From assembly GCA_026391775.1 (NCBI GenBank), contig JAPLDK010000011.1, positions 77,066-141,065 on the forward strand: DNA of 64,000 bases, written 5' to 3'. Below the pieces are notes generated by a model. That model saw only the letters and a program-made list of their open reading frames with translations. It was not told the DNA's origin and ran no database searches. The translations under genes were made by a program, and so were the position numbers. The DNA is from Bacteroidota bacterium (lineage in GTDB: Bacteria > Bacteroidota > Bacteroidia > Bacteroidales > FEN-979). This document shows positions 6,185 through 37,706 of the stretch, piece after piece (positions within the stretch are counted from its first letter, which is position 1; the number at the start of each line of letters is the position of its first letter).

Positions 6185-6236
6185 AAAACCAACCTGGCCG
6201 GAATTCAGATCAGTTATTTGTGTCAATAAGGGTATT

Positions 6237-6989: not shown

Positions 6990-7111
6990 CGGTTTTAATA
7001 CTCACCAAAGGTAATTTGTTACTTCAAATATAATGAAGATTATAGTAATATGATAATTATACATAATTTATCTGTTTTTTCACTTAAATTTGTTATTTGA
7101 TAAACAGTACA

Positions 7112-7920: not shown

Positions 7921-7938
7921 TTGTTAACAAATTAACAA
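7921..7938. promoter_or_regulatory. Rex operator (perfect match to TTGTTAA-N4-TTAACAA)
   Basis: TTGTTAACAAATTAACAA lies 5 nt upstream of the hdrA-like start codon. A rex gene is present in the same window. Confidence 0.7.
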
Positions 7939-7942: not shown

Positions 7943-9748
7943 ATGAGAAGCAAAGAGATCACCGGTTTGTTCTTTTACAACCATTCGGGTTTGTATCCGG
8001 ACCCCATCGATTATTCAGAGTTAATCAGGTATTCATATTTATTTGAAAACGTAGCCAAAGCCTATACCTACTCTGATTTCATCTGGAATGAGAAAAACAT
8101 TCTGAAGAAAATCGAGGAGAATAATTTTAAGCGAATCATTATTGCAGGCTTGATTCCAGGGACCGTCAAGGCATTGTTTTCCAAAGCCATGGCGCTTGCA
8201 GGCAAAGATCCGGAGAAAGTCCTTCTTGCAAGTTTCAACGATTACTGTACAGGTACTTTATTCAATCCGGAGCGGCTTAAAATCGTTCTTGCTTCGATCA
8301 TATCAGGTATCCCTTATGAATTCACCGGGATTCCGGATGAACTGCCGGTTAATAATGCAACTCTTGTAGTAGGAGGAGGAATTTCAGGGATACAGGCTGC
8401 CCTGGAAATTGCTTACAGCAACAACCTGGTATACCTGGTGGAAAAAAGCGGTACCATAGGGGGGAAAATGGCCACATTTGACAAAACCTTCCCGACCCTT
8501 GACTGTGCTGCCTGTATACTTACTCCAAAAATGGTAGAGGTAAACCAGCATCCGAACATACGGCTGATGAGCTATTCCGAGATTATTGAAGTTACCGGCA
8601 GACCCGGAAATTTTAATGTCAAAGTGTTAAAAAAAGCCCGGAAGGTAAATGTGCAAACCTGTATCGGATGCGGAACCTGTGCCGAAAAGTGTCCTGCCCA
8701 GGCCCCAAGCGAGTTTGATGCCGGCACCTGCATGAGAAAAGCAATCTATATCCCTTTTCCACAGGCTGTTCCAAACAAATACCTTGTAGATGCGGAAAAC
8801 TGCATTTATCTGAAAAACGGAAAATGCAAAGCCTGTGTGAAAGCCTGTCCTGTCCCCGGCTGCATAGACCTGGATGAACAAGACTCTGAAGTCATTATTA
8901 ATGTCGGAAATATTATTATTGCCACCGGGTATAAGCCTTTCGATGCAGGGCGGATGACACAGTTCGGGTATGGGCAGTTCCCGAATGTCCTAAATTCGCT
9001 GGAGTTTGAAAGACTACTGAATGCTTCCGGCCCAACCAGCGGCAATATCCATTTCAGGAGTCAGGATAAAAAAGGGAATTGGATATTTAATACATCAACC
9101 GGAAAGCCGGAAAAGATCGCAATTATTCATTGTGTAGGCAGCCGTGACAAGAATTTCAATAAATATTGCTCGAGGGTGTGTTGTATGTACTCCCTGAAAT
9201 TCGCCCATCTGATCATGGAGAAACTTCCCGAAGCTGAAATTTTCGAATACTTTATCGACATGCGTTCCTTTGGTAAAGGTTATGAAGAGTTCTATGAGAG
9301 AATAAAGCAGGAGGATGTGTCTATTATCAGGGGTAAAACTGCAAAGGTCGAGCAGCATGGAGAAAAATTGTTTCTTAGGGGAGAAGACATCCTTAAAGGT
9401 GAGATCCTTGAAAACCTTGTGGACATGGTTATTTTATCGGTTGGCCTTGAATCAGGTGAGGATGCAGGGAAGATCAGTGAAATGCTGAACATTGCCACGA
9501 ATACTGACGGATGGTTTGAAGAGGCGCATTACAATCTTGACCCCACAGGAACCTGCCGCGGGGGCATCTTTCTGGCCGGCACATGCCAGGGGCCAAAAGA
9601 CATACCCGATTGTGTAGCCCAGGGATCTGCTGCTGCCGCCAGGGTTATTCAAAGCATTCTGAAAGGCAGGATACGCGACGATTCGATGTCGGTATCACTT
9701 GAACATGTGGAACGCAAAATAGAAGAATTATCTACTGTACCAATTTAA
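7943..9748 (+). CDS. HdrA/QmoA-type FAD and FeS flavoprotein, paralog 1
   Basis: FAD fold VVGGGISGIQAALEIA, HdrA hallmark HCVGSRDKNFNKYCSRVCCMYSLKF, and inserted ferredoxin motifs CIGCGTCAEKCP and CKACVKACP. Confidence 0.88.
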   Translation: MRSKEITGLFFYNHSGLYPDPIDYSELIRYSYLFENVAKAYTYSDFIWNEKNILKKIEENNFKRIIIAGLIPGTVKALFSKAMALAGKDPEKVLLASFNDYCTGTLFNPERLKIVLASIISGIPYEFTGIPDELPVNNATLVVGGGISGIQAALEIAYSNNLVYLVEKSGTIGGKMATFDKTFPTLDCAACILTPKMVEVNQHPNIRLMSYSEIIEVTGRPGNFNVKVLKKARKVNVQTCIGCGTCAEKCPAQAPSEFDAGTCMRKAIYIPFPQAVPNKYLVDAENCIYLKNGKCKACVKACPVPGCIDLDEQDSEVIINVGNIIIATGYKPFDAGRMTQFGYGQFPNVLNSLEFERLLNASGPTSGNIHFRSQDKKGNWIFNTSTGKPEKIAIIHCVGSRDKNFNKYCSRVCCMYSLKFAHLIMEKLPEAEIFEYFIDMRSFGKGYEEFYERIKQEDVSIIRGKTAKVEQHGEKLFLRGEDILKGEILENLVDMVILSVGLESGEDAGKISEMLNIATNTDGWFEEAHYNLDPTGTCRGGIFLAGTCQGPKDIPDCVAQGSAAAARVIQSILKGRIRDDSMSVSLEHVERKIEELSTVPI

Positions 9749-9761
9749 AACCAAGTATACC

Positions 9762-10892
9762 ATGAGTGTACGTGTTCAACCGGAGCTTAGGAACCAATTG
9801 ATTCAATTTGGCATTGGTGACTGGAATGCATGCTATCATTGCGGCACCTGCACTGCCCAATGCCCTCTTTCGGAAGAAGGCTTTCTTTTCCCGAGGAAAA
9901 AGATCCGCCTGATGCAGATGGGCCTGAAAAACGAGCTGGAAGCCAGTGTGGAGCCGTGGCTTTGTTATTATTGCGGCGACTGCTCAACATCCTGCCCCAG
10001 GGATGCCAATCCGGGCGAACTGATGATGTCGCTGAGAAGATATCTCACCTCAATCTATGACTGGACAGGTATGTCAAAGAAATTCTACACTTCTGAATTG
10101 TGGGAACTGGGCTTTATCATAGCGTTTGCCGCACTCGTTGTATTGTCGTTCCTAATCGTGCTTCCTTCTATGGGATATCATTTCACCAGGGAGCTGACAG
10201 CTGAAGGCGGAGTACAGGTCAATGCTTTCGCTCCAATCCATGTTGTCGAGACATTTGACTGGACCATGGCCGCCATAGTGGCATCCCTGCTTATTTCGAA
10301 CATTCTGAGGATGTATTACAAGATCATCTGGAAATATGGCAATATGAAAGTCAGCATATGGGTGCATATCAGGGAATTCTGGCTGCTTATCTTAAATTTC
10401 ACAGTACAACCGAAATTCAATAAATGCGATGACAAACGCTACTGGCTCTCACATTGGTTCCTGATGTCGGGGTACACTATCATGTTCATTGTTATTGTCG
10501 TCTATCTTCCATGGTTCCAAACAGAGAAGATCCTGCCGGTATGGCATCCTCAAAGGCTCCTCGGTTACTATGCAACCTTCGGGCTGCTCTTTGGTTTGTT
10601 CGTGGCTATAATCGGACGTATTCAACGGAAGGACATCAAATTTTTGTTTTCGCATATCAGTGACTGGCTTTTCCTCGCTATGCTAACCCTGACCGCAATT
10701 ACCGGCATACTGATCCATATTTTCAGGATAACCGGGATGCCGGTGGCCACATACATATCATACATTGCCCATATGTCGGTGCTGGTCCCGATGATTCTTA
10801 TCGAAGTGCCATTTTCAAAATGGTCCCATCTTGCCTACCGGCCTTTTGCCGTATATTTTCAACAGCTTAAAAAATATGCAGTTCCAAGGTAA
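9762..10892 (+). CDS. QmoC-like subunit: HdrC-type 2x[4Fe-4S] domain fused to a His-rich polytopic membrane domain
   Basis: N-terminal CYHCGTCTAQCP and CYYCGDCSTSCP are followed by at least five long hydrophobic segments with many His (WLSHWF, LIHIF, YIAHM, KWSHL). Confidence 0.7.
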   Translation: MSVRVQPELRNQLIQFGIGDWNACYHCGTCTAQCPLSEEGFLFPRKKIRLMQMGLKNELEASVEPWLCYYCGDCSTSCPRDANPGELMMSLRRYLTSIYDWTGMSKKFYTSELWELGFIIAFAALVVLSFLIVLPSMGYHFTRELTAEGGVQVNAFAPIHVVETFDWTMAAIVASLLISNILRMYYKIIWKYGNMKVSIWVHIREFWLLILNFTVQPKFNKCDDKRYWLSHWFLMSGYTIMFIVIVVYLPWFQTEKILPVWHPQRLLGYYATFGLLFGLFVAIIGRIQRKDIKFLFSHISDWLFLAMLTLTAITGILIHIFRITGMPVATYISYIAHMSVLVPMILIEVPFSKWSHLAYRPFAVYFQQLKKYAVPR

Positions 10893-10919
10893 TCCGATCA
10901 TCCCTGAAAAACAAAAATT

Positions 10920-12644
10920 ATGGAAGAACCGAGAATAGGGGTTTATGTCTGCTGGTGCGGCACCAATATCTCCAAAATGGTGGATGTGGAAGCTGTGACC
11001 AAGGAAGTCAGCACCCTGCCGAGCGTGGTCCTGTCAAAAAACTACAAATACATGTGTTCCGATCCAGGGCAGGATCTGATCATCAAGGATATCAAATCGC
11101 ATAATCTGAACCGGGTTGTTGTCGCTGCCTGCTCTCCCCGTCTTCACGAACTTACTTTCCGCAATGCCTGCGAGAAGGCAGGTATTAATCCCTACCTTTT
11201 CGAGATGGCAAACATTCGGGAGCAGGATTCCTGGGTACATACCGACCGCACTGAGGCAACCAAAAAAGCCATCGACCTTGTTATCGCAGCCATCAGAAGA
11301 GTAAGATACCACGAATCTTTGCAGAAACGCTCGGTGAATGTTGACCCGTCCACCCTTATCATTGGTGGAGGCATATCAGGAATGACTGCAGCTCTGGAGA
11401 TCGCAAATGCCGGCAAAAAAGTTTTCCTGATTGAAAAGGCCGACCATCTTGGTGGTCAGGTTGCGAGGTTCGACCTCACTTTCCCCCACCTCTCAAGCGC
11501 ACAACAGATGATAGGGCCAATGATACAGCGGGTTGAGAACCATCCCATGATCAATGTGTACCTGAACACTGAACTGAAAGAAGTCAAAGGGTACATAGGG
11601 AACTTCACGGCCAGGCTGCAGTTCATGGGTGTTGAACAGCCTGAGATAACCTTTGGCAATATCATAGCAGCTGTCGGCCTCAAACCGTTTGACCCATCAG
11701 TGATTGAAGAATACAGTTACGGCAAATTCCCGGATGTGATCACATCACTTGAATTCGAGGATAAGCTGAGGGCCGGCAGGATCCTTACAAAGTACGGCAA
11801 AGAGCCAAGGAATGTGGCAATCATACATTGCGTGGGCAGCCGAAACAAGAAATATCATGAGTACTGCTCCAGGGTCTGTTGCATGGTAGCATTGAAATTT
11901 GTCCATGAGATCCGCGCAGCACTGCCCGATGCCAATATTTTTGAGATTTATGCCGACATGAGGGCATATGGCAAAGGGCATGAAGAGTTCTATGCCATGA
12001 CCACGCATAAACAAATCATTTTTCTGATGTACGACCAGCAGAAACGCCTGCCCGTGATAAGTGAAGCTCACCGCGATGATGATTGCAATATGCTGATCGA
12101 AATGAATGAGCTTCTTTCGGGGATTGATATTGAAGTGCCTGTGGATATGGTGATACTGATGGTCAATATGGAGGCCCATGATAATGTCAAGGAAGTGGTC
12201 CGCGCTATTGGGGTGAGTTTATGCGGTAACCAGTTCTTTATTGAGAAACATCCGAAACTGGATCCGGTCGCCACGACTACCGGTGGTGTCTATATTGTCG
12301 GTACATGCCAGGGGCCTAAAGATATCCCGGATTCTGTTGCCCAGGCTAAAGCTGCTGCAGCCAGGATACTTGGGACTATTGCCCAGGGTTCTGTAGCGGT
12401 TGAAGTCACTACGGCCGTCGTTAACGAATCTCTTTGCTGTGGCTGCCAGACCTGCATCAGTGTATGCCCATATACGGCATTATCATATGATGAAATTAAA
12501 AAAGCATCGGTGGTCAATGAAGTATTATGTAAAGGTTGCGGAACCTGCGGAGGGTGTTGTCCGGCCGGGGCCATTACAAGTAAACATTTCACCGACCGCC
12601 AGATCCTTTCAGAGATTGAAGGTATAATGTCCATGTCATATTAA
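10920..12644 (+). CDS. HdrA/QmoB-type FAD and FeS flavoprotein, paralog 2, with C-terminal 2x[4Fe-4S] ferredoxin domain
   Basis: N-terminal IGVYVCWCGTNISK, IIGGGISGMTAALEIA, HCVGSRNKKYHEYCSRVCCMVALKF, and C-terminal CCGCQTCISVCP and CKGCGTCGGCCP. Confidence 0.88.
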   Translation: MEEPRIGVYVCWCGTNISKMVDVEAVTKEVSTLPSVVLSKNYKYMCSDPGQDLIIKDIKSHNLNRVVVAACSPRLHELTFRNACEKAGINPYLFEMANIREQDSWVHTDRTEATKKAIDLVIAAIRRVRYHESLQKRSVNVDPSTLIIGGGISGMTAALEIANAGKKVFLIEKADHLGGQVARFDLTFPHLSSAQQMIGPMIQRVENHPMINVYLNTELKEVKGYIGNFTARLQFMGVEQPEITFGNIIAAVGLKPFDPSVIEEYSYGKFPDVITSLEFEDKLRAGRILTKYGKEPRNVAIIHCVGSRNKKYHEYCSRVCCMVALKFVHEIRAALPDANIFEIYADMRAYGKGHEEFYAMTTHKQIIFLMYDQQKRLPVISEAHRDDDCNMLIEMNELLSGIDIEVPVDMVILMVNMEAHDNVKEVVRAIGVSLCGNQFFIEKHPKLDPVATTTGGVYIVGTCQGPKDIPDSVAQAKAAAARILGTIAQGSVAVEVTTAVVNESLCCGCQTCISVCPYTALSYDEIKKASVVNEVLCKGCGTCGGCCPAGAITSKHFTDRQILSEIEGIMSMSY

Positions 12645-12654
12645 CCGTAACAGT

Positions 12655-13092
12655 ATGAATTTCAGACCCACAATTGTAGCTTTCCTTTGCAACTGGTGCG
12701 CCTATACAGGCGCAGACCTTGCAGGCACATCGAGGCTTCACTATGCGCCGAATGTGCGTATCATCCGGATTATGTGTTCAGGCAGAATTGAACCCACTTT
12801 TATCCTGAAGGCCTTTAAAGAAGGAGCTGATGGTGTTCTTGTCTGTGGATGTCATCCGGGCGACTGCCATTACCAGGAAGGAAATTATAAATGCCTCAGG
12901 CGGTTTAAGCTGCTGGAAAAATTCGTCAGCCAGATGGGCATTGAAAAGGAACGGCTTAAGCTGGAATGGATCAGCGCCAGCGAAGGTAAACAGTTTGCCG
13001 AACTGATAAATGAGATGACAAAGACCATACTTCAGCTTGGTCCTGGCAAAGTGAATAAAACACTGGAATTTGAACATTTTAAAACGAAGTAA
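12655..13092 (+). CDS. mvhD: MvhD/FlpD-type hydrogenase delta subunit ([2Fe-2S])
   Basis: FLCNWCAYTGADLAG...IRIMCSGRIEP...GADGVLVCGCHPGDCHY is the classic MvhD signature. Confidence 0.92.
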   Translation: MNFRPTIVAFLCNWCAYTGADLAGTSRLHYAPNVRIIRIMCSGRIEPTFILKAFKEGADGVLVCGCHPGDCHYQEGNYKCLRRFKLLEKFVSQMGIEKERLKLEWISASEGKQFAELINEMTKTILQLGPGKVNKTLEFEHFKTK

Positions 13093-13094
13093 TC

Positions 13095-14075
13095 ATGGCT
13101 CAGGAATCCACCAAACCAAAACTTAAACTGGCAATATACTGGGGCGCTGCCTGCGGAGGCTGTTGTGTTTCCGTGCTCGACACGCATGAAAAGCTTCTTG
13201 ATATTGTTGCTGCAGCCGATCTTGTATTCTGGCCGATCGCGATGGATATTAAATACAAGGATGTTGAGAATATGCCCGATAAATCGATCGACCTGACACT
13301 TTTCAATGGGGCGGTCCGTAACAGTGAAAATAAACATTTGGCCCAGCTGCTCCGGCAAAAATCAAAAATCCTGGTGGCGTATGGCTCCTGCGCTTATATG
13401 GGGGGGATACCAGGCCTTGCAAACTTCTTCTCTCGCAATGAAATCTTTAAAAGGGCTTACGAGGAAACCGAATCTACCTTAAACCCTGATAAAACCATTC
13501 CTTTGCATAGTTTTAAAGTTAAAGAAGGAATCCTGGAGATCCCTGAAATGTTCAATGATGTTTTTCCCCTGAACCAGATCGTGGATGTGGATTATTATAT
13601 TCCCGGATGTCCTCCTCAGAGTGAGAGGCTGCTGGAAGTATTTTCAGCGATTGTATCCGGGATAGGGCTTCCGCCGGCCGGCTCGGTTGTCGGAGCCAAT
13701 GACAAGACCAACTGTGATGAGTGCAAGCGGAAAAAGTCCGATAAGAAGCAGATCAAAAGATTTTACAGACCCTGGGAGATCCAGGATGATAAAGAAACTT
13801 GTTTTATTGAACAGGGGGTTATCTGCATGGGTCCTGCAACCCGCGGAGGGTGCGGAGTCCGTTGTGTGGAAGGCAACTCTCCATGCCGGGGATGCTACGG
13901 ACCACCTCCCGGAGCAACCGACCCGGGCGCAAAAATGATGGCAGCAATCGGGACCATGATAGCTGCCGACAAACCTGAAGAGATTGATGAAATAATTGAA
14001 ACTATTGTTGACCCGGCCGGACTGTTCTACCGTTTCAGCCTGCCCGGCTCTATCTTGGGGAGGAAGATACTATGA
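13095..14075 (+). CDS. mvhG: [NiFe] hydrogenase small subunit, MvhG-like (group 3 type)
   Basis: No Tat signal. N-terminal WGAACGGCCVS, GCPP, and a C-terminal Cys-rich cluster region (CMGPATRGGCGVRCVEGNSPCRGCYGP). It sits directly upstream of the large subunit. Confidence 0.88.
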   Translation: MAQESTKPKLKLAIYWGAACGGCCVSVLDTHEKLLDIVAAADLVFWPIAMDIKYKDVENMPDKSIDLTLFNGAVRNSENKHLAQLLRQKSKILVAYGSCAYMGGIPGLANFFSRNEIFKRAYEETESTLNPDKTIPLHSFKVKEGILEIPEMFNDVFPLNQIVDVDYYIPGCPPQSERLLEVFSAIVSGIGLPPAGSVVGANDKTNCDECKRKKSDKKQIKRFYRPWEIQDDKETCFIEQGVICMGPATRGGCGVRCVEGNSPCRGCYGPPPGATDPGAKMMAAIGTMIAADKPEEIDEIIETIVDPAGLFYRFSLPGSILGRKIL

Positions 14076-15535
14076 AGCATATAAGCATTGATCCGATTAC
14101 AAGGCTTGAAGGCCATGGGAAGATAGAAATCTACCTCAACAATGAAGGGGAAGTTGAGAATGCCTACTTCCAGGTCCCCGAGCTGAGGGGTTTTGAAAAG
14201 TTTTGTGAAGGCCGGCCGGTTGAAGAACTGCCATCCATCGTCACAAAAATATGTGGTGTTTGTCCTGGCTGCCATCATATGGCTTCAGGCAAAGCCGTTG
14301 ATGGTGTTTTCGGTGTTGAACCACCCCCTACCGCTAAAAAATTAAGAGAACTTTTCTACATGGCTCATTTTGTCCACAGCCATATTGCCCACTTTTATGC
14401 TCTGGCAGCTCCCGACTTCGTTGTAGGCCCTACTGCAAACCCGGCTGAACGGAATATACTCGGGGTCATCGGTAAAGTAGGCCTGCAGATAGGGTCAGAA
14501 GTCATCAAACAGCGCCGAATTGCCCAGGAAATACAAGCACTTATCGGAGGTCACCAAACGCATGTCGTCATGAATACCCCCGGCGGGGTAAAAAAAGGCA
14601 TCACTCCGGAGCAACGGGATGATATTATAAAAAAAGCAGAAGGATTCGTTGAATTTGCAAAATTCTCGATTCAATTGTTCAAGGATGTGGTACTCGGAAA
14701 TAAGGAGTATGTCGAGCTCATCCTGCACGGCCCTTATTCATTGACACTGCATTCCATGGGGCTGGTCGATGAACAGAATAAAGTCAATTTCTATGACGGG
14801 AAAGTAAGGGTCGTAGATACCATTGGTAAAGAACTTTACAAGTATGCGCCAGGGCAGTACCTTGATTTCGTTGAGGAGCGGGTCGAACCATGGACATACC
14901 TGAAATTCCCATACCTTAAAAAGATCGGGTGGAAGGGCTTCACCGACGGCCAGGAATCAGGAGTTTACCAGGCTACACCACTGTCAAGACTGAATGCAGC
15001 TGACGGGATGGCAACGCCTATAGCTCAGCAGGAGTATGATTTTATGTATAAAACCCTTGGTGGGAAGCCGGTCCATGCTACACTTGCTATGCATTGGGCC
15101 AGGCTGATCGAATTGATATACGCAGCTGAACATTGCCTTGAACTCGCATTGGATCCGGAAATAACAGGTAAAGAACTTCGGGCCCCATTGGGGAAAATAG
15201 TCGGCGAAGGAATAGGAATTGTCGAAGCCCAGAGAGGAACACTCACCCATCATTACTGGACTGATGACAGAGGATTGGTCAGAAAAGTCAACCTGATCGT
15301 AGGAACCACCAACAATCATGCAGCGATCTGCATGTCAATTAAAAAAGCTGCCCAGGGCCTTATCAAAAAAGGCAGCGAGATAACGGAAGGGACACTGAAC
15401 ATGATTGAAATGGCCTTCAGGGCCTATGATCCTTGCTTCTCATGTGCCACTCATTCCCTTCCCGGCCAGATGAAGATGGTCCTTAACATCAGGGATATTG
15501 AAGGCAATATCATTGATTCATTCAGTAGAAAATAA
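14072..15535 (+). CDS. mvhA: [NiFe] hydrogenase large subunit, MvhA-like
   Basis: RLEGHGKIEI N-terminus, L1 motif KICGVCPGCHH, and C-terminal DPCFSCATH followed by a 26-aa tail expected to be cleaved. ATGA overlap with mvhG. Confidence 0.93.
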   Translation: MKHISIDPITRLEGHGKIEIYLNNEGEVENAYFQVPELRGFEKFCEGRPVEELPSIVTKICGVCPGCHHMASGKAVDGVFGVEPPPTAKKLRELFYMAHFVHSHIAHFYALAAPDFVVGPTANPAERNILGVIGKVGLQIGSEVIKQRRIAQEIQALIGGHQTHVVMNTPGGVKKGITPEQRDDIIKKAEGFVEFAKFSIQLFKDVVLGNKEYVELILHGPYSLTLHSMGLVDEQNKVNFYDGKVRVVDTIGKELYKYAPGQYLDFVEERVEPWTYLKFPYLKKIGWKGFTDGQESGVYQATPLSRLNAADGMATPIAQQEYDFMYKTLGGKPVHATLAMHWARLIELIYAAEHCLELALDPEITGKELRAPLGKIVGEGIGIVEAQRGTLTHHYWTDDRGLVRKVNLIVGTTNNHAAICMSIKKAAQGLIKKGSEITEGTLNMIEMAFRAYDPCFSCATHSLPGQMKMVLNIRDIEGNIIDSFSRK

Positions 15536-15544
15536 TGTTAAATT

Positions 15545-16036
15545 ATGGAAACAGAAAAAATTCTTGTTCTGGGCATAGGTAATGACATCCTCACGGATGA
15601 TGGTATCGGGCCAAAACTGGTCAGAGACCTAACTAATATGAAGCTGAACGTTGAGATTACATTTGAAACTGCTGCAGTGGGAGGCCTGGAGTTGCTGGAA
15701 ATTGTATCTGGGTATTCCCGCATTTTTATGATAGACGCCATCAGGACTTCAGGAGGGAAACCAGGGAATGTATACTTTCTCTCTCCGGATGATTTCAGGG
15801 AAACCATGCACATTTCAAACCTGCATGACATTAACTTCTTTACGGCACTTGAACTTGGCAACAAACTGAATTACCCTCTCCCCTCTGAGATTATGATAAT
15901 AGCCGTGGAGATAGCGGAAGACCTTGAATTCAGCGAACAACTAAGCCCGGCACTTCAAAAGCGCTATCCTGAAATCCTTTCGAAGGTCTCAAAGTTTCTT
16001 CTTGAGGCTCTGCTATTCCAGAAATTCAAAGCCTGA
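15545..16036 (+). CDS. Hydrogenase maturation endopeptidase (HyaD/HycI/FrhD family)
   Basis: ILVLGIGNDILTDDGIG motif, about 160 aa, immediately downstream of the large subunit. Confidence 0.88.
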   Translation: METEKILVLGIGNDILTDDGIGPKLVRDLTNMKLNVEITFETAAVGGLELLEIVSGYSRIFMIDAIRTSGGKPGNVYFLSPDDFRETMHISNLHDINFFTALELGNKLNYPLPSEIMIIAVEIAEDLEFSEQLSPALQKRYPEILSKVSKFLLEALLFQKFKA

Positions 16037-16051: not shown

Positions 16052-19000
16052 TTAATAGGTTGTCCGGGCTGTGTAGTGTGTATGCAGCAGGTCTTCTGCC
16101 ACAGGGCCCATTGGATCGAGCAGGAATTCTTCATATGCTGCCAGGGCTTCTGGATTTTCATTAGCCTTCCGCAGATCAAGTCCCATTTCTTCAGCATATA
16201 ATGCCTGAACCCTTTTCAAGCGGATGTCAGGATTGGTGGGTATCGGCTGCCCCCCTCCGCCAAGGCATCCTCCGGGGCAAGCCATGATCTCGATAAAATG
16301 GAATTGGGAATCTCCGTTCCTAATCATTTGCATCAGGGTTTTTGCATGTGCCAGTCCATGAGCAACGGCAACTTTTAATTCCAAACCGTTCATGAAATTC
16401 CATTGTTCAAGACAATCCTGGATAGGCAGAGTGAGTTCCTTAATGCCATCCATACCACGGACCGGCCTGATGATCAGGTTTTCATATGGAACATCCCTGC
16501 CCGTGATCTTGTCATATACTGTGCGCAGTGCCGATTCCATAACACCTCCGGTGGCTCCGTAAATAACGCCTGCTCCGGAAGACCTGCCCATGAGGTCATC
16601 ATAATGGTCATTGGGCAGGGTTTTGAAATCAATGCCTGCCTGTATAATCATAATAGCCAGTTCACGGGTAGTAAGGACGAAGTCGACATCCTTAAACCCG
16701 CTGCCTCTCATCTCGGGGCGGTCAGCCTCAAACTTCTTCGCCGTACAGGGCATAATAGATACAGTGACAATATTTTCAGGCTTGATCTGGCGCTTTTTTG
16801 CATAGTAAGTTTTTGCCAGTACGCCAAACATCTGCTGAGGGGATTTACAGGTGGAAAGATGAGGCAGAAGATCCGGGAAATAATGCTCGCAGTATTTGAT
16901 CCATGCCGGGGAACAGGAAGTGATCATGGGTAGCTTTACAGTGTCATCATGAAAGTCCATTTTCTTTCGGAGCCTGTCGAGCAACTCTGCACTTTCTTCA
17001 ATGGTAGTGATATCGGCTGAAAATGCAGTATCCAGAACAGTATCAAATCCCAGTCTTCTCAGTGCGCTGACAAGCTTTCCTGTCACGCGTTTCCCGGGCT
17101 CGATGCCCAGGTCCTCCCCTATGGCGACCCTGACAGCAGGCGCTGTTTGAACAATCACATGCTTTTCTTTGTTCCATATGGCATGCCAGACTTCTTCAAT
17201 ATAATTCTTTTCAACCAAAGCGCCTGTCGGACAGCGGTCAATGCATTGTCCGCAATTAGTGCAGAATACTTCATACATGGATTTTCCCATATACGTTGAG
17301 ATCTTCATATTACTGCCCTTATGAGCCACCCAAACGGCACTCACACCCTGTATCTCGGAACAAGTGCGCACACAGCGCTGGCACCGCACACATTTACGGT
17401 CATCCTTGACAATTGCAGGAGAGAGTGTATCGAGTGTAATTCTTTCCTCATGGTGAAGAGGGATAAAAGTGGGATTAATAATCTTGAATTCAGATGCCAG
17501 GTTCTGAAGTTCACATTTGCCACTTTTATAGCAATTGGTGCAATCTGTAAAATGTTCCGATAGGAGCAATTCAAGCATTGCTTTCCGGGCGGTCCGAACA
17601 TTCATGCTGTTGGTTAATATGACCATGCCTTCTTCCAGAGGAGTAGAGCAGGAAGTAACCAGGTGTTTCGATTTTTCCAGTTCCACAATGCAGATCCTGC
17701 AATTCCCTGCTATCTTCAGGTCCTTGTGATAGCAAAGGGTCGGAATATGGATATTCATTGATCTGGCGGCATCCAGTATAGATAATCCTTCTTCAACGAA
17801 TACGGTCTGCCCGTCTAAAGTGACTTTGATTTTTTTCTTTAATGTCACTTCTTTTGATAACCCCACATAAAGGTCATACTTCTCGGCAATCTCATCCTGT
17901 GCAAGCTGGAGGGGTATACTTATATGGTCATATAAATCCTGTTTGCTGAAATGATAATCTTTTGACTGAAGGAGGTAATTGTTGATGGACTCGGCGAAAA
18001 TACCGAGCAGGGCGCTGATCTCAGCGCCGGTAAACCCTTCCTCGAAACGAGGCTGGGCAATATCATCCGTATAATTGATGATCAGGCTACGGTCTCCGTT
18101 GAGGATGGTTGAAGCCAGAACATTAAACAGTGTTAAGAGAACCAGATTAAGTTCCTGGATATCCATATGCTGATAATGCGACAGATCGACCGTGCTGCTT
18201 TCGGAATTTACCCTTACAATCATGGTATTGACCAGGTTCTCCTTGTCCCTTAAAAGAATTTCATAGATAAGGAGGTTTGTACGTACGGAAATGTGCCGTA
18301 AAGCAGCTTCATTCTTCACCTGCCATTCCATAGGATTGCTTTTCATCCTGGCAAGGAGGAACATCAGCCTTCTCATGATATGAAGGCGTGCAAGTGGTTC
18401 CCAACCCAGGGCCTGCCTGGTGTAGGAAGCATCCGTATCGAGTTTGAGGTCAAGATATTTCAGCATCCAGAAGCGTTCAAAAGGTACGGGTGTAAGTCTA
18501 AGCTTTCCCATGGCGATCCGGACTGCAATACCCGGATAAGCAAGGAGTCTTGGAATAAAGAATGGCTTTATAGCTTTCCCGAAAAAGTCTTTTGTTGCGA
18601 TCCCGAACAACTCCTTATGCGAAGTGCTCCCGTCGTGGCTGGCTGCATAAATATCAAATTGAGGCAGAAGGTGGCTTTTCTGCAAAACAATCACAATAAG
18701 CCTTGCCAGGTCGTGGATGTGAATATATGGCACGGCAGACTCGCCTTTCCCACCAAGAATCCTTGAGTCATATCCATTTGACAACCATGTCCCGAGAAAT
18801 TTGTACAGGGGTGGGTATTCGCAGAAATCACTGAACACAGCGGCAAAACGGATAACAATGGCGGGAATATCTTTGGAATTGTTCCTCAGCAGTTCTTCCC
18901 CTATTTTCTTGGTTTTGGCATATGCGAAATCTGCATCCGGTGAGGTCTTCTCACTGATAAAGTGGTCCGGGCCAGGGAAATTGCAGGCGGCCAGTGAACT

Positions 19001-19366
19001 GGCGAAAATAAAACGCTTGATTTTAAGCTGCCTTGCCAGGTCAAGGACATTCCTGGTCCCGTCAATATTCGTCCTCTGGTAAGCAATATCATCAGAATAA
19101 CTAAAATCATAAAAAGCAGCCAGATGCAGGAGGAAATCTGCACCCCCATTCAAATGTATCTCCTTGTAAACTTCCCTGATCTGCGCTGAATGAGCAATAT
19201 CCCATTGGATCCAATGGATATTTGGATGCTCGGCAATATTAGCTTCTTTCGCGGACCTTCGAGCAATGGCAAAAACCGTGAATTGTTCCTTGACAAATTC
19301 AAGAAAATACCGGCCTATAAAACCGGATGCGCCTGTGATTATAAGTGAAGGCAGACTGGAGTTCAT
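16052..19366 (-). CDS. Fusion protein: extended-SDR (NAD-dependent epimerase/dehydratase-type) domain, helical linker, then full-length M3-type [FeFe] hydrogenase
   Basis: One uninterrupted 1104-aa ORF. N-terminus has ITGASGFIGRYF (GxxGxxG), FASSLAA and YAKTK (YxxxK). From about residue 515: 2Fe-2S and FeS domains (CYHKDLKIAGNCRICIV, EHFTDCTNCYKSGKCELQ, CVRCQRCVRTC, CTNCGQCIDRCP). H-cluster motifs are TSCSPAW, MPCTAKKFE and EIMACPGGCLGGGGQP. Confidence 0.85.
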   Translation of the reverse strand: MNSSLPSLIITGASGFIGRYFLEFVKEQFTVFAIARRSAKEANIAEHPNIHWIQWDIAHSAQIREVYKEIHLNGGADFLLHLAAFYDFSYSDDIAYQRTNIDGTRNVLDLARQLKIKRFIFASSLAACNFPGPDHFISEKTSPDADFAYAKTKKIGEELLRNNSKDIPAIVIRFAAVFSDFCEYPPLYKFLGTWLSNGYDSRILGGKGESAVPYIHIHDLARLIVIVLQKSHLLPQFDIYAASHDGSTSHKELFGIATKDFFGKAIKPFFIPRLLAYPGIAVRIAMGKLRLTPVPFERFWMLKYLDLKLDTDASYTRQALGWEPLARLHIMRRLMFLLARMKSNPMEWQVKNEAALRHISVRTNLLIYEILLRDKENLVNTMIVRVNSESSTVDLSHYQHMDIQELNLVLLTLFNVLASTILNGDRSLIINYTDDIAQPRFEEGFTGAEISALLGIFAESINNYLLQSKDYHFSKQDLYDHISIPLQLAQDEIAEKYDLYVGLSKEVTLKKKIKVTLDGQTVFVEEGLSILDAARSMNIHIPTLCYHKDLKIAGNCRICIVELEKSKHLVTSCSTPLEEGMVILTNSMNVRTARKAMLELLLSEHFTDCTNCYKSGKCELQNLASEFKIINPTFIPLHHEERITLDTLSPAIVKDDRKCVRCQRCVRTCSEIQGVSAVWVAHKGSNMKISTYMGKSMYEVFCTNCGQCIDRCPTGALVEKNYIEEVWHAIWNKEKHVIVQTAPAVRVAIGEDLGIEPGKRVTGKLVSALRRLGFDTVLDTAFSADITTIEESAELLDRLRKKMDFHDDTVKLPMITSCSPAWIKYCEHYFPDLLPHLSTCKSPQQMFGVLAKTYYAKKRQIKPENIVTVSIMPCTAKKFEADRPEMRGSGFKDVDFVLTTRELAIMIIQAGIDFKTLPNDHYDDLMGRSSGAGVIYGATGGVMESALRTVYDKITGRDVPYENLIIRPVRGMDGIKELTLPIQDCLEQWNFMNGLELKVAVAHGLAHAKTLMQMIRNGDSQFHFIEIMACPGGCLGGGGQPIPTNPDIRLKRVQALYAEEMGLDLRKANENPEALAAYEEFLLDPMGPVAEDLLHTHYTARTTY

Positions 19367-19752
19367 ATTGATCGTATATAAAGCCTGTATGAAATCAAAA
19401 TAGCCAACCCCATCATCAGATCACCAGCTCCCGAAAAGAGTACCATAATTATTGGCCTGTCGAACAGATAATATGAAAACAGGAAGACGGCTGCTGTGAA
19501 TTTGGTCACACATGATAAAATTACCAACTTTTTTGAATTCTCAGGAGCCAGGGCCGCCATAATATAAGCCAGGCTGATGATCAGATGGAAAACACCACCC
19601 TGGTCGGCAAAGAATTTTTCCTGTAACTGAAATCCGAAAAATTCTATCCATCCTGACGGAAAAATTATCAGGGCTAACCCAAAACATATGGAATGAATGG
19701 CGATAAGCCAAAGTACCCATTGCAATAAAAGACGGCTGTTTGACGAGGTCAT
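19363..19752 (-). CDS. Small integral membrane protein (about 4 TM), co-transcribed with the SDR-hydrogenase fusion
   Basis: 129-aa ORF made almost entirely of hydrophobic helices. Its stop overlaps the fusion gene start in an ATGA junction (19363-19366). Confidence 0.6.
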   Translation of the reverse strand: MTSSNSRLLLQWVLWLIAIHSICFGLALIIFPSGWIEFFGFQLQEKFFADQGGVFHLIISLAYIMAALAPENSKKLVILSCVTKFTAAVFLFSYYLFDRPIIMVLFSGAGDLMMGLAILISYRLYIRSI

Positions 19753-19884: not shown

Positions 19885-20352
19885 ATGGCTACAAACAACA
19901 ACAATTACATCGGTGAATTAGTCGAGCAGTACGGAAGAACCCGTTCCAGCCTGATGCCAATTCTGCAGGGAGTGATTGAGAAAAAGAACTTTATTTCAGA
20001 CATGGACATGACTGAAATTGCAAAAGAACTCGATCTTTCTGCAGCTCAGGTTTACGGTACTGCAACCTTCTATGCATTTCTTGAAACACAACCACGCGGA
20101 CAATATGTGATCCGTGTCTGCAAAACTATTACCTGCGACATGCATGGCAAAAAAACTATCGTACAGACGATTGAAGACATGCTGAAGATCAAAGCCGGAG
20201 AAACCACCCCGAACAAAAAGTTCACTTTGCTTGAGACCAATTGCCTTGGCTGGTGCCATGAAGGACCGGCCATGCTGATCAATGAGAAACCTTATTCCGG
20301 TCTTACACCCGAGAAGGTCCATGACATTTTAAGTGAGTATATGCATAAATAA
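19885..20352 (+). CDS. NuoE/HydC-like [2Fe-2S] subunit (set 1)
   Basis: Thioredoxin-like ferredoxin pattern CKTITCDMHG ... CLGWCHEGPAMLIN. Confidence 0.88.
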   Translation: MATNNNNYIGELVEQYGRTRSSLMPILQGVIEKKNFISDMDMTEIAKELDLSAAQVYGTATFYAFLETQPRGQYVIRVCKTITCDMHGKKTIVQTIEDMLKIKAGETTPNKKFTLLETNCLGWCHEGPAMLINEKPYSGLTPEKVHDILSEYMHK

Positions 20353-20373
20353 TTTAACATAAGGAGATTGACA

Positions 20374-21540
20374 ATGTCTGATACCAAACTAAAACGAGTT
20401 GACCTTATTTTTGGCGAATATTCCAATGTTAAGTATAAGGTTCTGGAGGATACACTAAAACGTTCTACTGACGAGATCCTTGAAGACCTGCTGGAATCGG
20501 GTTTGCGTGGCCGCGGCGGTGCAGGTTTTCCGACCGCCATGAAATGGAAATATACAGCTCAGGCCCCGGGAGAGGAAAAATATGTTGTTTGTAATGCCGA
20601 CGAAGGTGAACCAGGTACATTTAAAGACCGTGAGATCCTGACCCGTGTTCCAAGGAAAGTATTTTCGGGCATGGCGATCTGCGGTAAGGTGATTGGTGCA
20701 AAGAGAGGCTATATCTATCTCAGAGGAGAATATAAATTCCTATTGCCAGATCTTAATAAAGAACTTACAGATTATCACGAGCATGCTAAGACTATTGGCC
20801 TGGATTTTCTGATCGAGATCAAGCTGGGCAGCGGGGCATATATTTGCGGTGAAGAAAGCGCTCTTTTTGAATCCATGGAAGGGAACCGCGGTGAGCCAAG
20901 AAACAAACCTCCCTACCCCACAACTTATGGATACCTTGGGAAACCCACGGTTATCAATAATGTGGAAACTTTTGTAAATGTGCTGATGATCATGCGTCTC
21001 GGCCCCATACAGTTCAAAATGCTGGGGACTACTGACTCACGTGGATCAAAAGTATTTTCGGTTTCGGGCGATACTCCTATTCCTGGCATTTACGAACTGG
21101 AATTAGGGATGCCCCTCGATCGTTTTGTTGATGAATTCGGCGACGGTGACGCCAAGGCTGTCCAGGTTGGAGGTGCTTCCGGATTCTGTGTACCGCGCAA
21201 AAAATTTAAAGATACAGTTATAGGATTTGAAGGTGTTCCCACCGGAGGCTCCATGATGCTCTTCAACAGCTCCAGATCCATGTTCAATGTTTTACACAAT
21301 TATCTCGAATTCTTTGAAGAAGAATCCTGCGGACAATGTACTCCCTGCCGTGTCGGCTGCCAGCAACTCCGCAAGGGCATTGAAGCAGTGAAGAAAGGTG
21401 ACAAGAAATCTCTTTATCTAGACCAGCTCCTGAAACTTTCCGAAAGCATGAGGCTGACGGCAAAATGCGGTCTCGGCCAGTCAGTCGCCAACTCATTCTC
21501 ATCTATCGTATATAACTTCAAAGAAGAAATGATTTACTAA
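20374..21540 (+). CDS. NuoF/HydB-like FMN/NAD(H)-binding subunit, minimal form without accessory ferredoxin domains (set 1)
   Basis: GLRGRGGAGFPTAMKWK, GSGAYICGEESALFESMEG, ESCGQCTPCR...KCGLGQ. The protein ends directly after the N3-type cluster motif. ATG at 20374 preferred (AAGGAG 7 nt upstream) over the TTG at 20368. Confidence 0.88.
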   Translation: MSDTKLKRVDLIFGEYSNVKYKVLEDTLKRSTDEILEDLLESGLRGRGGAGFPTAMKWKYTAQAPGEEKYVVCNADEGEPGTFKDREILTRVPRKVFSGMAICGKVIGAKRGYIYLRGEYKFLLPDLNKELTDYHEHAKTIGLDFLIEIKLGSGAYICGEESALFESMEGNRGEPRNKPPYPTTYGYLGKPTVINNVETFVNVLMIMRLGPIQFKMLGTTDSRGSKVFSVSGDTPIPGIYELELGMPLDRFVDEFGDGDAKAVQVGGASGFCVPRKKFKDTVIGFEGVPTGGSMMLFNSSRSMFNVLHNYLEFFEEESCGQCTPCRVGCQQLRKGIEAVKKGDKKSLYLDQLLKLSESMRLTAKCGLGQSVANSFSSIVYNFKEEMIY

Positions 21541-21553
21541 AGGAACACTAAGC

Positions 21554-23368
21554 ATGAAAAATACTAAGAACGAAACTATAAAACAGATCAGCCTTACCAT
21601 AGACGGGATTCAGGTAAGTGTTGATGAGGGTAAAACAATACTTGAAGCCGCGCGCCAGCTCAACATACACATCCCGACACTCTGCTTTCATGAAGACCTG
21701 TGTGTTGCAGGTAACTGCCGCGTATGTATCGTGGAACAGGAGAAAGTAAAATCACTTCCTGCTTCCTGTGCCATGCCTGTTTCTGAAGGCATGGTTATTC
21801 ATACCAACAGTATGAAGGTAAGGCTTGCCCGGAAACATATTGTAGAGCTGCTACTGTCGGAACATAACGCGGATTGTACGAAGTGTTATAAGAACGGTAT
21901 TTGCGAGCTTCAGGGACTTGCATCCCAGATGCTCACGGGCGACCATATGTTCCTTGACCTTGTACCGGAACATAAATATTCTATCGACATGTTCAACACT
22001 GCAATTATCAAGGACGACAGCCGTTGTATACGTTGCCAGCGTTGCGTGAGGACATGTGAGGAACTTCAGGGTGTTAGCGCACTCGGGGTAGCATACCGGG
22101 GCAACTACATGAAGATCTCTACCTTCTTTGAACACCCATTGTTCGAAGTTGTTTGCACCAATTGCGGCCAGTGCGTGAACCGTTGTCCGACAGGTGCCCT
22201 TATCGAAAGGAATTACATTGACCAGGTGTGGGATGCCATTTATGACCCTACCAAGCATGTCGTTGTTCAAACTGCTCCTGCAGTACGTATTGCCCTTGGT
22301 GAATCTCTTGGATTGCCACCGGGAAAAATTGTAACAGGTAAAATGGTCGCTGCCTTAAAACGTCTTGGCTTCAGCGCAGTTCTCGACACCGATTTTACAG
22401 CAGACCTTACGATTATCGAAGAAGGCAATGAGCTCCTGACCAGGCTTAAGAAAGCCCTTCTCGACAAGGACCCCAATGTATGCCTGCCCATGGCAACTTC
22501 ATGTTCACCAGGCTGGATTAAATTCATTGAGCACACATTCCCTGAATTTTTGGGAAACCTTTCGACCTGTAAATCGCCTCAGCAGATGTTTGGCGCACTT
22601 GTTAAAACATACTATTGCCAGAAACGCAAGCTGGATGCCAAGAACGTTGTATCAGTTTCAATCATGCCTTGTACTGCAAAGAAATTTGAAGCCAATCGTC
22701 CTGAAATGCGTTCCAGTGGCTATAAAGATGTTGATTATGTTTTGACCACCCGCGAACTGGCCATTATGATCAAACAGGCAGGCCTCGATTTTGAGTCCTT
22801 GCCTGATGAACATTTCGACAGCCTCATGGGAGCTTCGACAGGAGCTGCAGTAATTTTCGGAACCACCGGCGGTGTGATGGAAGCCGCTCTGCGTACTGTA
22901 TATGAAGTTGTCACCGGGCGGGAGATCCCATTCGAAGGCCTTAATATCACTGCTGTGCGTGGAACTGAAGGCGAGGTTCGAGAAGCTTCATTGAAGATTG
23001 AAAAAACCAAACCTGAATGGAAATTCCTTGATGGCGTTGAACTGAAATGCGTTGTTGCCAATGGCCTTGCACATGCCAAAAAAGTCATGCAGGATGTTAA
23101 GGAGGGGAAAGCCCATTATCACTTTATCGAGATCATGGCTTGCCCCGGAGGATGCCTTGGAGGCGGCGGACAGCCGATTCCCACGAACAAGGACATCCGC
23201 ACAAAGAGGAAACAGGCTATTTATGAAGAAGATATGGGAATGTCGATCCGTAAATCTCATGAGAACCCCGAAGTACAACTGATCTACAAAGAATTCCTCG
23301 GACATCCTCTTGGCCATAAATCCCATGAACTATTACATACGCATTACACTCCCAGAAAGAGGTACTAG
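21554..23368 (+). CDS. hydA: [FeFe] hydrogenase catalytic subunit HydA (set 1), TSCSP variant
   Basis: M3 architecture (CFHEDLCVAGNCRVCIV, EHNADCTKCYKNGICELQ, CIRCQRCVRTC, CTNCGQCVNRCP). H-cluster motifs are TSCSPGW, MPCTAKKFE and EIMACPGGCLGGGGQP. Confidence 0.93.
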   Translation: MKNTKNETIKQISLTIDGIQVSVDEGKTILEAARQLNIHIPTLCFHEDLCVAGNCRVCIVEQEKVKSLPASCAMPVSEGMVIHTNSMKVRLARKHIVELLLSEHNADCTKCYKNGICELQGLASQMLTGDHMFLDLVPEHKYSIDMFNTAIIKDDSRCIRCQRCVRTCEELQGVSALGVAYRGNYMKISTFFEHPLFEVVCTNCGQCVNRCPTGALIERNYIDQVWDAIYDPTKHVVVQTAPAVRIALGESLGLPPGKIVTGKMVAALKRLGFSAVLDTDFTADLTIIEEGNELLTRLKKALLDKDPNVCLPMATSCSPGWIKFIEHTFPEFLGNLSTCKSPQQMFGALVKTYYCQKRKLDAKNVVSVSIMPCTAKKFEANRPEMRSSGYKDVDYVLTTRELAIMIKQAGLDFESLPDEHFDSLMGASTGAAVIFGTTGGVMEAALRTVYEVVTGREIPFEGLNITAVRGTEGEVREASLKIEKTKPEWKFLDGVELKCVVANGLAHAKKVMQDVKEGKAHYHFIEIMACPGGCLGGGGQPIPTNKDIRTKRKQAIYEEDMGMSIRKSHENPEVQLIYKEFLGHPLGHKSHELLHTHYTPRKRY

Positions 23369-32072: not shown

Positions 32073-32090
32073 TTGTGATTTTATTAACAA
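32073..32090. promoter_or_regulatory. Rex operator upstream of hydrogenase set 2
   Basis: TTGTGATTTTATTAACAA: left half resembles TTGTGAA, right half is a perfect TTAACAA. It lies 47 nt upstream of the -7 motif TAATTTTG (32138-32145). Confidence 0.6.
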
Positions 32091-34074: not shown

Positions 34075-34089
34075 GGAAAAAGGAACGTT

Positions 34090-35862: not shown

Positions 35863-35934
35863 TAAACAGTTACTAGGAACTGGGTACTAGGCAACTAGTA
35901 AACCCAAAACCCAGAGCCCAGAAACCAGAAAATT

Positions 35935-37697: not shown

Positions 37698-37706
37698 TGG
37701 CCGGAC

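Follow-up and report, generated by a model that had tools for sequence, protein, structure and literature searches.

The 64,000-nucleotide stretch analysed here (hereafter the window; positions 77,066 to 141,065 of contig JAPLDK010000011.1, assembly GCA_026391775.1, from a Bacteroidota bacterium of the Bacteroidales lineage FEN-979) carries a gene in which a short-chain dehydrogenase/reductase (SDR) domain, a globin-fold domain and a [FeFe] hydrogenase, here called HydA', follow one another in a single polypeptide (Table 1). The initial annotation had read this gene as one uninterrupted open reading frame (ORF) of 1104 residues, translationally coupled to an upstream gene for a protein of 129 residues with four transmembrane helices (4-TM). 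Both readings held: the frame runs unbroken from end to end, and in the DNA the TGA stop of the 4-TM gene overlaps the ATG start of the fused ORF as ATGA (CGATCAATATGAACTCC; in context, ATATGAAC). Pfam places Epimerase at residues 9-234 of the fused protein (E 6e-28), Fer2_4 at 511-587, NADH-G_4Fe-4S_3 at 594-629, Fer4_Nqo3 at 650-717, Fe_hyd_lg_C at 735-1038 (E 9e-95) and Fe_hyd_SSU at 1047-1101, and gives no match for residues ~335-510. The gene lies among many other hydrogenase genes, including three hydA/B/C sets within the 64-kb window.

Table 1. Features of the fused gene and its surroundings, in window coordinates (FeS, iron-sulphur; AF2, AlphaFold2).
Feature	Position	Strand	Basis or remark
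Crp/Fnr-family regulator gene	7097..7828	+	Pfam cNMP_binding + HTH_Crp_2; candidate binder of the palindrome
Further copies of the palindrome	7921-7938; 32073-32090; 39655-39672
Hdr/Mvh [NiFe] cluster with HycI protease	7943..16036	+	Pfam; convergent with fused gene; two HdrA-like flavoproteins, FeS protein, MvhD/G/A ([NiFe] group 3c-like), HycI; non-methanogen
Fused SDR-globin-HydA' gene	16052..19366	-	Single uninterrupted ORF, 1104 amino acids
HydA' H-domain, residues 731-1104	16052..17176	-	Pfam; motifs TSCSP, MPC, CPGGCLGGGGQP
HydA' F-domain, residues 516-730	17177..17821	-	Pfam; [2Fe-2S], His-ligated [4Fe-4S], 2x[4Fe-4S]
Variable Lys-rich linker, residues 506-515	17822..17851	-	A-rich DNA
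Globin-fold domain, residues 336-505, RsbR-N-like, probably non-haem	17852..18361	-	AF2 model + Foldseek
Extended SDR domain, residues 1-335	18362..19366	-	Pfam Epimerase, AF2 model, motifs; NADP(H) binding predicted
4-TM membrane protein gene, 129 amino acids	19363..19752	-	ORF upstream of fused gene
CRP/FNR-like palindrome TTGTTATTTAATTAACAA	19792..19809		In 132-bp divergent promoter region
hydC-hydB-hydA, divergent from fused gene	19885..23368	+	Pfam; presumed diaphorase partner HydB/HydC, parent paralogue HydA
Second hydB-hydA-hydC set	32614-36414		Pfam
PAS-containing HydS-like gene + SpoIIE/PP2C phosphatase gene	36513-39623	-	HydS-like gene 37707-39623: Fer4, H-domain, FeS domain, PAS
Third hydC-hydB-hydA set	39800-43924		Pfam
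HydS-like gene fused to HisKA/HATPase_c	43921-45900	+	Followed by receiver-histidine-kinase gene; region to 47483

The fusion is real and conserved. Loci were collected by scanning one genome per GTDB species with a pattern and then comparing every ORF of the loci by BLAST; a second, alignment-seeded scan brought the collection to 95 unique loci. Far from being confined to the window, the fused architecture is carried by public metagenome-assembled genomes (MAGs) of Bacteroidales and Prolixibacteraceae in the species-level scan and accounts for 25 of the 95 loci. Twenty-two of these are intact ORFs of 1102-1106 amino acids (18 of exactly 1104); they come from other species-level genomes, produced by different groups with different assemblers, and include one chromosome-level MAG (L018, OY820914.1). 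Nineteen orthologues and the window protein align without a gap over 1104 columns, the sole variable stretch being the ~10-12 residues at the junction. All 20 proteins keep the TGASGFxG, ASS-region and YxxxK motifs of the SDR domain, which the initial annotation had correctly located within residues 1-335 (as TGASGFIGRY, FASSLAA and YAKTK in the window), and the TSCSP, MPC and CPGGCLGGGGQP motifs of the hydrogenase. Measured against the three closest orthologues, with dS near saturation, the ratio of nonsynonymous to synonymous substitution rates (dN/dS) was ~0.04 for the SDR domain, 0.03-0.07 for the globin domain, 0.02-0.04 for the F-domain and ~0.04 for the H-domain (0.02-0.07 over all four), and was higher in the linker (0.06-0.18). 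Both halves of the protein are thus under strong purifying selection. Two outcomes that had been foreseen as fatal to the idea of a fusion, close homologues that always comprise two genes and an SDR half that is a decayed remnant, did not materialise: the close homologues are fused, and the SDR motifs are intact and under selection.

The part in front of the hydrogenase also occurs by itself. A search with residues 1-506 returned >1000 proteins, nearly all of them stand-alone and ~550 amino acids long (~50% identity, 98% query cover), from Ignavibacteria, Melioribacter and other anaerobes. The stand-alone members end in a conserved tail (LLPDCKELQ..IRQLSAFYQ) that is missing from the fused clade, where the hydrogenase takes its place. 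The fused partner is not a lone SDR domain, as had been supposed, but an autonomous and widespread two-domain protein, SDR plus globin, that predates the fusion; in one Bacteroidales clade a duplicated HydA has replaced its C-terminal tail. HydA' is 62% identical to the adjacent HydA, of which it is evidently an old duplicate. In neighbour-joining (NJ) distance trees, the fused hydrogenase halves form one main clade, sister to the clade of neighbouring HydAs, and the fused SDR-globin halves likewise form one main clade, to which unfused forms from hydrogenase islands are the nearest relatives. One clade for each half points to a single old fusion event, and the data fit one old duplication and fusion. 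One fused locus (L063) falls outside the main clade in each tree and could represent either an early offshoot or a separate fusion event, two options that distance trees do not separate.

The linker that joins the two halves has no invariant column and a mean identity of 37% among the 20 aligned fused proteins, and the predicted local distance difference test score (pLDDT) of the AF2 model falls below 50 for residues 507-515; these ~10 residues are accordingly modelled as flexible. At the DNA level the junction is an A-rich run (AAAGAAAAAAATCAAAG) that includes an A7 run. One protein of 520 amino acids (P0001), 83% identical to the fused protein, ends just past the junction and was considered as a close homologue encoded by two genes. 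That reading was rejected in favor of a frameshifted read of a fused gene, because P0001 lacks the stand-alone tail and departs from an L024-type junction (EVIQKKK followed by IKVTIDG) inside the lysine/poly-A run (EVIQKKSCSI...). Decayed copies occur as well: one is cut off right after the L1 motif and continues into AT-rich non-coding DNA (L001/P0003), one is split (L014) and one has an internal deletion (L028). P0001 and the split copy suggest that the junction is prone to frameshift errors or real slippage, and automated annotation may call the fused gene as two genes. Truncated P0001, these damaged copies and the slippage-prone run are what could be cited for an assembly error, an overlooked stop or frameshift, or a young, selectively neutral read-through of adjacent genes, yet any such artefact or accident is scarcely credible against 22 intact ORFs from independent studies and assemblers, a junction at the identical position in 19 gap-free orthologues, purifying selection on both halves at saturated dS, the agreement of P0001 with the L024-type junction up to its frameshift, and one main clade for each half; an assembly artefact or split gene is ruled out by these comparisons.

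By its sequence, HydA' is a catalytic-type group A, M3 [FeFe] hydrogenase. Residues 513-1101 match the NCBIfam model NF040763 (FeFe_hydrog_A6, "NADH-dependent [FeFe] hydrogenase, group A6") with 811.7 bits against a cut-off of 765, and TIGR02512 is also passed (497 vs 406). All Cys/His ligand patterns and spacings of the F-domain can be read in the translation, and the L2 (MPCxxKxxE) and L3 (ExMxCxxGCxxGGGQP) motifs of the H-cluster are canonical. The earlier description of a full M3 hydrogenase with all its motifs thus stands, except that L1 reads TSCSPAW where the reference is TSCCPxW, which puts Ser in place of one Cys ligand of the [4Fe-4S]H subcluster. The neighbouring HydA also has TSCSP, and in the alignment HydA1 of Acetobacterium woodii (7q4v) carries the identical substitution; the A. 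woodii enzyme is active and gives normal H-cluster spectra (PMC10021017), so TSCSP was rejected as a sign of decay or of an inactive hydrogenase. The presence of all FeS and H-cluster ligands, together with the L1 variant of an active enzyme, supports the catalytic competence of HydA'. Its full M3 F-domain and its lack of a PAS, histidine kinase or FeS (PF04060) domain place it outside group C (HydS). None of the maturation genes hydE, hydF and hydG was seen among the window ORFs scanned.

The SDR half has the features of an extended SDR: the TGASGFIG Rossmann motif, S123/S124-Y149-K153 and a C-terminal substrate lobe. Its AF2 model (pLDDT 89) superposes on RmlB/GalE-type extended SDRs across ~350-400 columns, and RmlB/GalE are the best Foldseek matches (template-modelling score on target 0.74-0.82); in a PDB sequence search, solved SDRs showed only remote similarity (best E 5e-10). 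GxxGxxG, S123/S124, Y149 and K153 are invariant or nearly so in ~80 diverse family members. Also invariant in the family is A35-R36-R37, which replaces the Asp found after beta2 in NAD-dependent relatives. Basic residues in this position, which several SDR-fold sensors and tethers also have, predict NADP(H); by these established cofactor rules, the SDR half is predicted to bind NADP(H). NmrA and similar dedicated SDR-fold sensors have lost the catalytic Tyr. Here Y149 and K153 are invariant and the Pfam NmrA score is 17 bits against a threshold of 27, so the SDR-globin module falls outside the NmrA family, though it may act like a sensor. Kinship with NDUFA9 of complex I was also considered; it does not appear in the list of the 60 top PDB sequence matches to the SDR half and is kept as an analogy.

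Residues 336-515 had been described as helix-rich and without a recognisable motif. The first part of that description holds; the second gives way to a globin-like fold with sub-threshold similarity to RsbRD_N. Foldseek on the whole N-terminal model returned SDR matches only, masking the helical domain, and residues 328-510 were hence modelled alone (AF2, 80-sequence alignment; pLDDT 87). All of the top 50 PDB matches to this model are globins or phycobiliproteins (template-modelling score on target 0.6-0.68), among them the ApcE bilin domain, Hell's Gate globin, myoglobin, cytoglobin and phycocyanins. At the sequence level, the helical domain had no match in the PDB. Pfam RsbRD_N (PF14361) weakly matches 24 of 80 family members (best E 2e-4), and the window's own domain does not match it. 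The model and these similarities point to a globin-fold domain remotely related to the non-haem sensor globin of RsbR. The family alignment contains no invariant His in residues 336-505, nor do the conserved columns of the domain hold any invariant His, Cys or Met able to ligate haem; haem binding was rejected for lack of a conserved axial ligand, and the domain is probably non-haem. Globins of the RsbR type act as non-haem sensor domains and may have fatty acids as ligands (PMC8717448).

An exhaustive phmmer search with the globin domain against 1.84 billion representatives yielded only 129 clusters, in which the domain nearly always lies directly behind an SDR. A few have a further C-terminal domain: PAS (P0177), receiver (P0189), Rieske [2Fe-2S] (P0213) or hydrogenase (P0122). 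Together with the globin fold and the RsbRD_N similarity, the PAS and receiver fusions support a sensor character for the SDR-globin cap. The module also occurs in a tandem double-SDR form (P0136) and, in a Melioribacteraceae MAG (L081, 3227-5986), joined to a pyridine-nucleotide-disulphide oxidoreductase; the latter fusion may be a deletion artefact, because its globin domain is truncated.

The 4-TM protein is the most regular companion of this module. The initial annotation had proposed to ask whether the two genes co-occur, and they do: the 4-TM gene lies upstream of the SDR-globin gene in 85 of the 95 unique loci, fused or unfused, usually with an overlap of 4-8 nt. Such coupling and co-occurrence support a putative docking of the cap at the membrane. 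Polar residues in or beside the helices are invariant (H20, S21, Q51, G53, H56, Y63, K84 and D111). No Pfam family matches the protein above threshold; a known family was rejected on the strength of weak DUF6632, DUF4345 and DUF4267 matches only, and its database homologues are all 'hypothetical' and without a name.

Divergently from the fused gene runs a hydCBA set, an arrangement found in 17 of 18 informative fused loci. The HydB of this set (20368-21540) is a protein of 390 amino acids with GGASG rather than GGPSG and without the extra FeS or C-terminal ferredoxin domains, whereas the other two NuoF-like proteins of the window have GGPSG and a C-terminal 2x[4Fe-4S], the bifurcating pattern. 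The extra FeS domains and GGPSG that mark electron-bifurcating HydABC (group A3) are therefore absent from the adjacent HydB, and by the criteria of Losey et al. (PMC7311640), which separate non-bifurcating from bifurcating HydB, it would be of the non-bifurcating, NADH-dependent type, in agreement with the NCBIfam name of HydA'. The SDR domain had invited the question of whether it supplies nucleotide specificity; with NuoE/NuoF-type hydC and hydB so regularly adjoining, it is not required for that role. The divergent hydCBA, the sister relation of HydA' to the adjacent HydA and the non-bifurcating pattern of HydB together support HydB-HydC as the partner diaphorase. On the other side of the fused gene, Hdr/Mvh genes lie downstream wherever the flank allows, save in L063, and also occur beside 12 unfused loci.

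The unfused SDR-globin/4-TM pair also lies in Hox, Hyd or Mvh islands at 15 of 66 stand-alone loci, which supports a link between module and hydrogenase that is independent of the fusion. Nine of these loci adjoin a HoxEF-U-Y-H NAD-linked [NiFe] operon, and most of them also have a full HdrA-Mvh cluster (Pfam-verified for L083; L027 ends at the contig end inside hoxU). In Bacteroidota the unfused pair is thus often placed between the operon of an NAD-linked hydrogenase, Hox or Hyd, and an Hdr/Mvh cluster. In L083 (2290-7342, minus strand), L085 (12579-17121, plus strand) and seven more Bacteroidales loci, HoxEF(fused)-HoxU-HoxY-HoxH occupies the position that hydCBA has in the window. Five other hydrogenase-linked loci have Mvh/Hdr or single hydrogenase genes nearby. 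A Saprospiraceae MAG (L054) has two divergent SDR-globin paralogues (5473-7203, minus strand; 7986-9617, plus strand), the second followed on the same strand by hydC-hydB-hydA, unfused and apparently co-operonic, with a HydA 69% identical to the window HydA.

Shared regulation ties the fused gene to the island. The palindrome between the 4-TM gene and hydC has the consensus TTGTTA-N6-TAACAA and is kept in 17 of 17 orthologous intergenic regions, 40-90 nt from hydC. The window contains four copies where 0.32 would be expected, and each sits in the promoter region of a hydrogenase operon: one at Hdr/Mvh, one at 4TM-hydA' and hydCBA, one at the second hyd set, and one at hydS and the third hyd set. 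The first of them lies directly downstream of the Crp/Fnr regulator gene. Unfused loci also have a copy between hoxEF and the 4-TM gene, and in L063 one lies ~65 nt upstream of the 4-TM ORF. Four boxes and an encoded Crp/Fnr regulator look like a dedicated hydrogenase regulon, to which the 4TM-hydA' operon would belong because it shares the palindrome; the common operator supports co-regulation, and we infer control by a Crp/Fnr-type factor.

Our preferred reading, to which we give a probability of roughly 40%, is that HydA' serves the neighbouring HydBC diaphorase as an alternative catalytic subunit, fitted with a membrane-docking cap that senses NADP(H) or another ligand. HydA' would then be a catalytically competent alternative alpha-subunit that uses the adjacent, non-bifurcating NuoF/NuoE-type HydB-HydC, with the redox link between H2 and NAD(P)H running through the HydB flavin as in known HydABC. 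SDRs transfer hydride. The SDR-globin cap is placed off the electron path in this scheme, because its chemistry is that of hydride transfer and the polypeptide has no flavin for the one-/two-electron conversion. Instead, the cap would read the NADP(H) pool, and possibly a hydrophobic ligand in the globin pocket, while docking onto the 4-TM protein. It would sit directly on the N-terminal [2Fe-2S] domain and could from there gate or localise H2 turnover; in HydABC, the corresponding [2Fe-2S] cluster A4 of HydA lies on the main electron chain to HydB (PMC10021017). Sensing, catalytic coupling and tethering were the three options raised by the initial annotation. All three remain candidates; the sensor-like globin domain, the PAS and receiver fusions of relatives and the shared operator lean toward sensor and tether without deciding between the options.

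Several observations weigh against this proposal. In L063 the fused gene has no hydCBA within 8 kb upstream, although HydB-HydC is the partner envisaged. As many as 51 of the 66 stand-alone loci have no hydrogenase within 8 kb, so that the ancestral role of the SDR-globin module is not hydrogenase-specific. The Foldseek E-values of the globin domain are weak (best 6.5e-3), and on cropped domains the RsbRD_N match, which spans profile positions 3-103 of 104, reaches at best 22.7 bits against a gathering threshold of 24.3. The contacts of HydA' with HydB/HydC and with the 4-TM protein, on which the proposal depends, are ones that we infer. Furthermore, C182, E183, H216, H250, W300 and other residues of the SDR substrate lobe are invariant across the family; this conservation and the invariant Ser-Tyr-Lys triad, which NmrA-type sensors have broken by losing Tyr, argue for a working enzyme.

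Alternatively, the SDR domain could be an NADP(H)-dependent oxidoreductase acting on a hydrophobic or membrane substrate delivered by the globin pocket, the 4-TM protein or both. Fusion to HydA' would bring the SDR into a HydA'-HydB-HydC complex, in which it could either consume NAD(P)H formed from H2 directly or pass on its own NAD(P)H for release as H2, giving an H2-driven reductase or an H2-evolving dehydrogenase. The triad is the strongest argument for such coupling, with GxxGxxG and the substrate lobe highly conserved beside it in ~80 members, and the best SDR relatives (RmlB, GalE, thioester reductases, 3beta-HSD/OleD-type) are true enzymes. The possible fatty-acid binding of RsbR-type globins (PMC8717448) would suit a hydrophobic substrate, redox proteins are found as fusion partners elsewhere (Rieske, P0213; the disulphide oxidoreductase of L081), and a NuoF-type HydB can use NADP, as in HydABC of Thermoanaerobacter kivui (PMC10021017). 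However, the 4-TM gene alone is constant near the gene and no substrate pathway is conserved there; GalE and RmlB hold NAD+ as a non-exchanging prosthetic group and need no external reductant, and a freely diffusing nucleotide needs no covalent fusion. PAS and receiver fusions and a sensor globin are also a better fit to signalling. We regard catalytic coupling as the main rival reading, somewhat less probable than the preferred one.

A broader possibility is that NAD-linked hydrogenases, both [NiFe] Hox and [FeFe] Hyd, have an accessory system that has so far gone unrecognised, formed by the 4-TM protein and the SDR/non-haem-globin protein. It would tie soluble H2 metabolism to the membrane, either through docking gated by redox state or by a ligand, or by offering an electron or hydride outlet to a membrane-bound acceptor. 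The fused protein would in that case be a membrane-coupled [FeFe] hydrogenase of a new type; we regard this as unlikely.

Very unlikely, in our view, is an electron conduit in which the globin-like domain, the 4-TM protein or both bind a redox cofactor such as haem and electrons leave the H-cluster along the FeS chain, enter the cap by way of the N-terminal [2Fe-2S] cluster and finally reach the membrane or the quinone pool. HydA' would then belong to a membrane-coupled respiratory [FeFe] hydrogenase, its SDR domain structural like NDUFA9 in complex I. In the 4-TM protein, invariant H20 and H56, with K84 and D111, lie within or beside the membrane helices, the cap has a globin fold, the module is C-terminally fused to FeS proteins in two lineages (HydA and Rieske, P0213), and it is associated with NuoE/F/G-type modules in both Hyd and Hox. 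Nevertheless, the globin domain offers no invariant His, Cys or Met for haem, RsbR-type globins are non-haem (PMC8717448), the 4-TM protein gives no match to cytochrome b or quinone-binding families, and the NDUFA9 resemblance is an analogy only.

Returning to HydA' as an alternative subunit with a sensing cap, its hydrogenase half is closest to HydA of the HydABC complexes of T. kivui (8a6t) and A. woodii (7q4v), with which residues 513-1101 align over their whole length (E 1e-169 and 1e-167) and share the same M3 cluster set; TSCSP is common to HydA' and the A. woodii protein. Unlike these subunits, HydA' has ~515 extra N-terminal residues (SDR, globin and linker) and a dedicated 4-TM partner gene, and it is a second copy beside a canonical HydA, on the strand opposite hydCBA. 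Its adjacent NuoE/NuoF-type hydC and hydB, with the HydB pattern described in PMC7311640, recall the non-bifurcating Hyd1ABC of Syntrophomonas wolfei and HydAB of Syntrophus aciditrophicus.

Covalent attachment of a hydrogenase to a signal-type domain is also seen in the putative sensory hydrogenases of group C (HydS), in which the H-domain is fused to PAS or linked to a kinase or phosphatase, and two such group C-like genes are present in the same window (37707-39623 and 43921-45900). In HydS, however, the sensor part lies at the C-terminus and the hydrogenase presumably provides the input, whereas the fused protein has an N-terminal SDR and globin and a catalytic group A hydrogenase with a full F-domain and the motifs of an active enzyme. 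The globin domain resembles the RsbR/RsbRD_N globins in its fold, in the lack of a proximal His and in its position N-terminal to a variable 'output', but it is preceded by an SDR, has no STAS domain behind it and stays below the Pfam cut-off.

SDR-fold sensors and tethers (NmrA, HSCARG, Tic62 and NDUFA9) likewise show a Rossmann/SDR fold attached to redox machinery: Tic62 tethers a flavoenzyme to the membrane, and NDUFA9 sits on NuoE/F/G-type machinery. Retention of the catalytic Tyr and Lys separates the fused SDR from NmrA, no specific sequence relationship to such sensors is detectable, and the best PDB matches listed are nucleotide-sugar enzymes; the resemblance is one of possible working, not of membership. 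Archaeal HydA-HyhS hybrids indicate that HydA tolerates a foreign N-terminal fusion, and archaeal group A 'hyd6TM' neighbours that it can be associated with small TM proteins (both PMC11216029); unlike the SDR-globin cap, the partner in the hybrids described there is a [NiFe] small subunit, an electron-transfer protein.

The impression that this architecture had gone undescribed was borne out within the literature searched, including the biggest recent surveys of hydrogenases (PMC11216029) and of globins (PMC8717448), which yielded no description of an SDR- or globin-fused HydA; nor has the fused protein a name in database sources. Classes and roles of [FeFe] hydrogenases are predicted largely from domain architecture and partner genes, and the fused family has an architecture outside current schemes. 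The fusion could point to a new mode of hydrogenase control or anchoring. Sensing of NADP(H) or of a lipid ligand by the cap would place the control of H2 turnover at the post-translational level, within a single polypeptide, unlike the transcriptional HydS circuits of the same island; a catalytic cap would make the protein a natural H2-driven reductase with potential interest for biocatalysis. The SDR-globin/4-TM pair, found beside [NiFe] Hox as well, may be a general and overlooked device for the regulation or localisation of NAD-linked hydrogenases among anaerobic Bacteroidota, fermenters that abound in anoxic lakes, sediments and digesters.

Away from hydrogenases, the 4-TM gene accompanies the SDR-globin gene in 42 of 53 stand-alone loci without a nearby hydrogenase and is the sole consistently conserved neighbour there, no third partner or substrate pathway being conserved in the 53. 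Other neighbours in these loci are radical-SAM genes (10), PAS/sigma-54 regulators (7), thioredoxins (5) and disulphide reductase (5). In two loci from Ignavibacteria/Melioribacter (L002, 5618-7756; L034, 5689-7433), an ArsR-type helix-turn-helix gene and thioredoxin/DsbD-type genes precede the stand-alone pair, an arrangement that may point to a thiol-redox context outside Bacteroidota.

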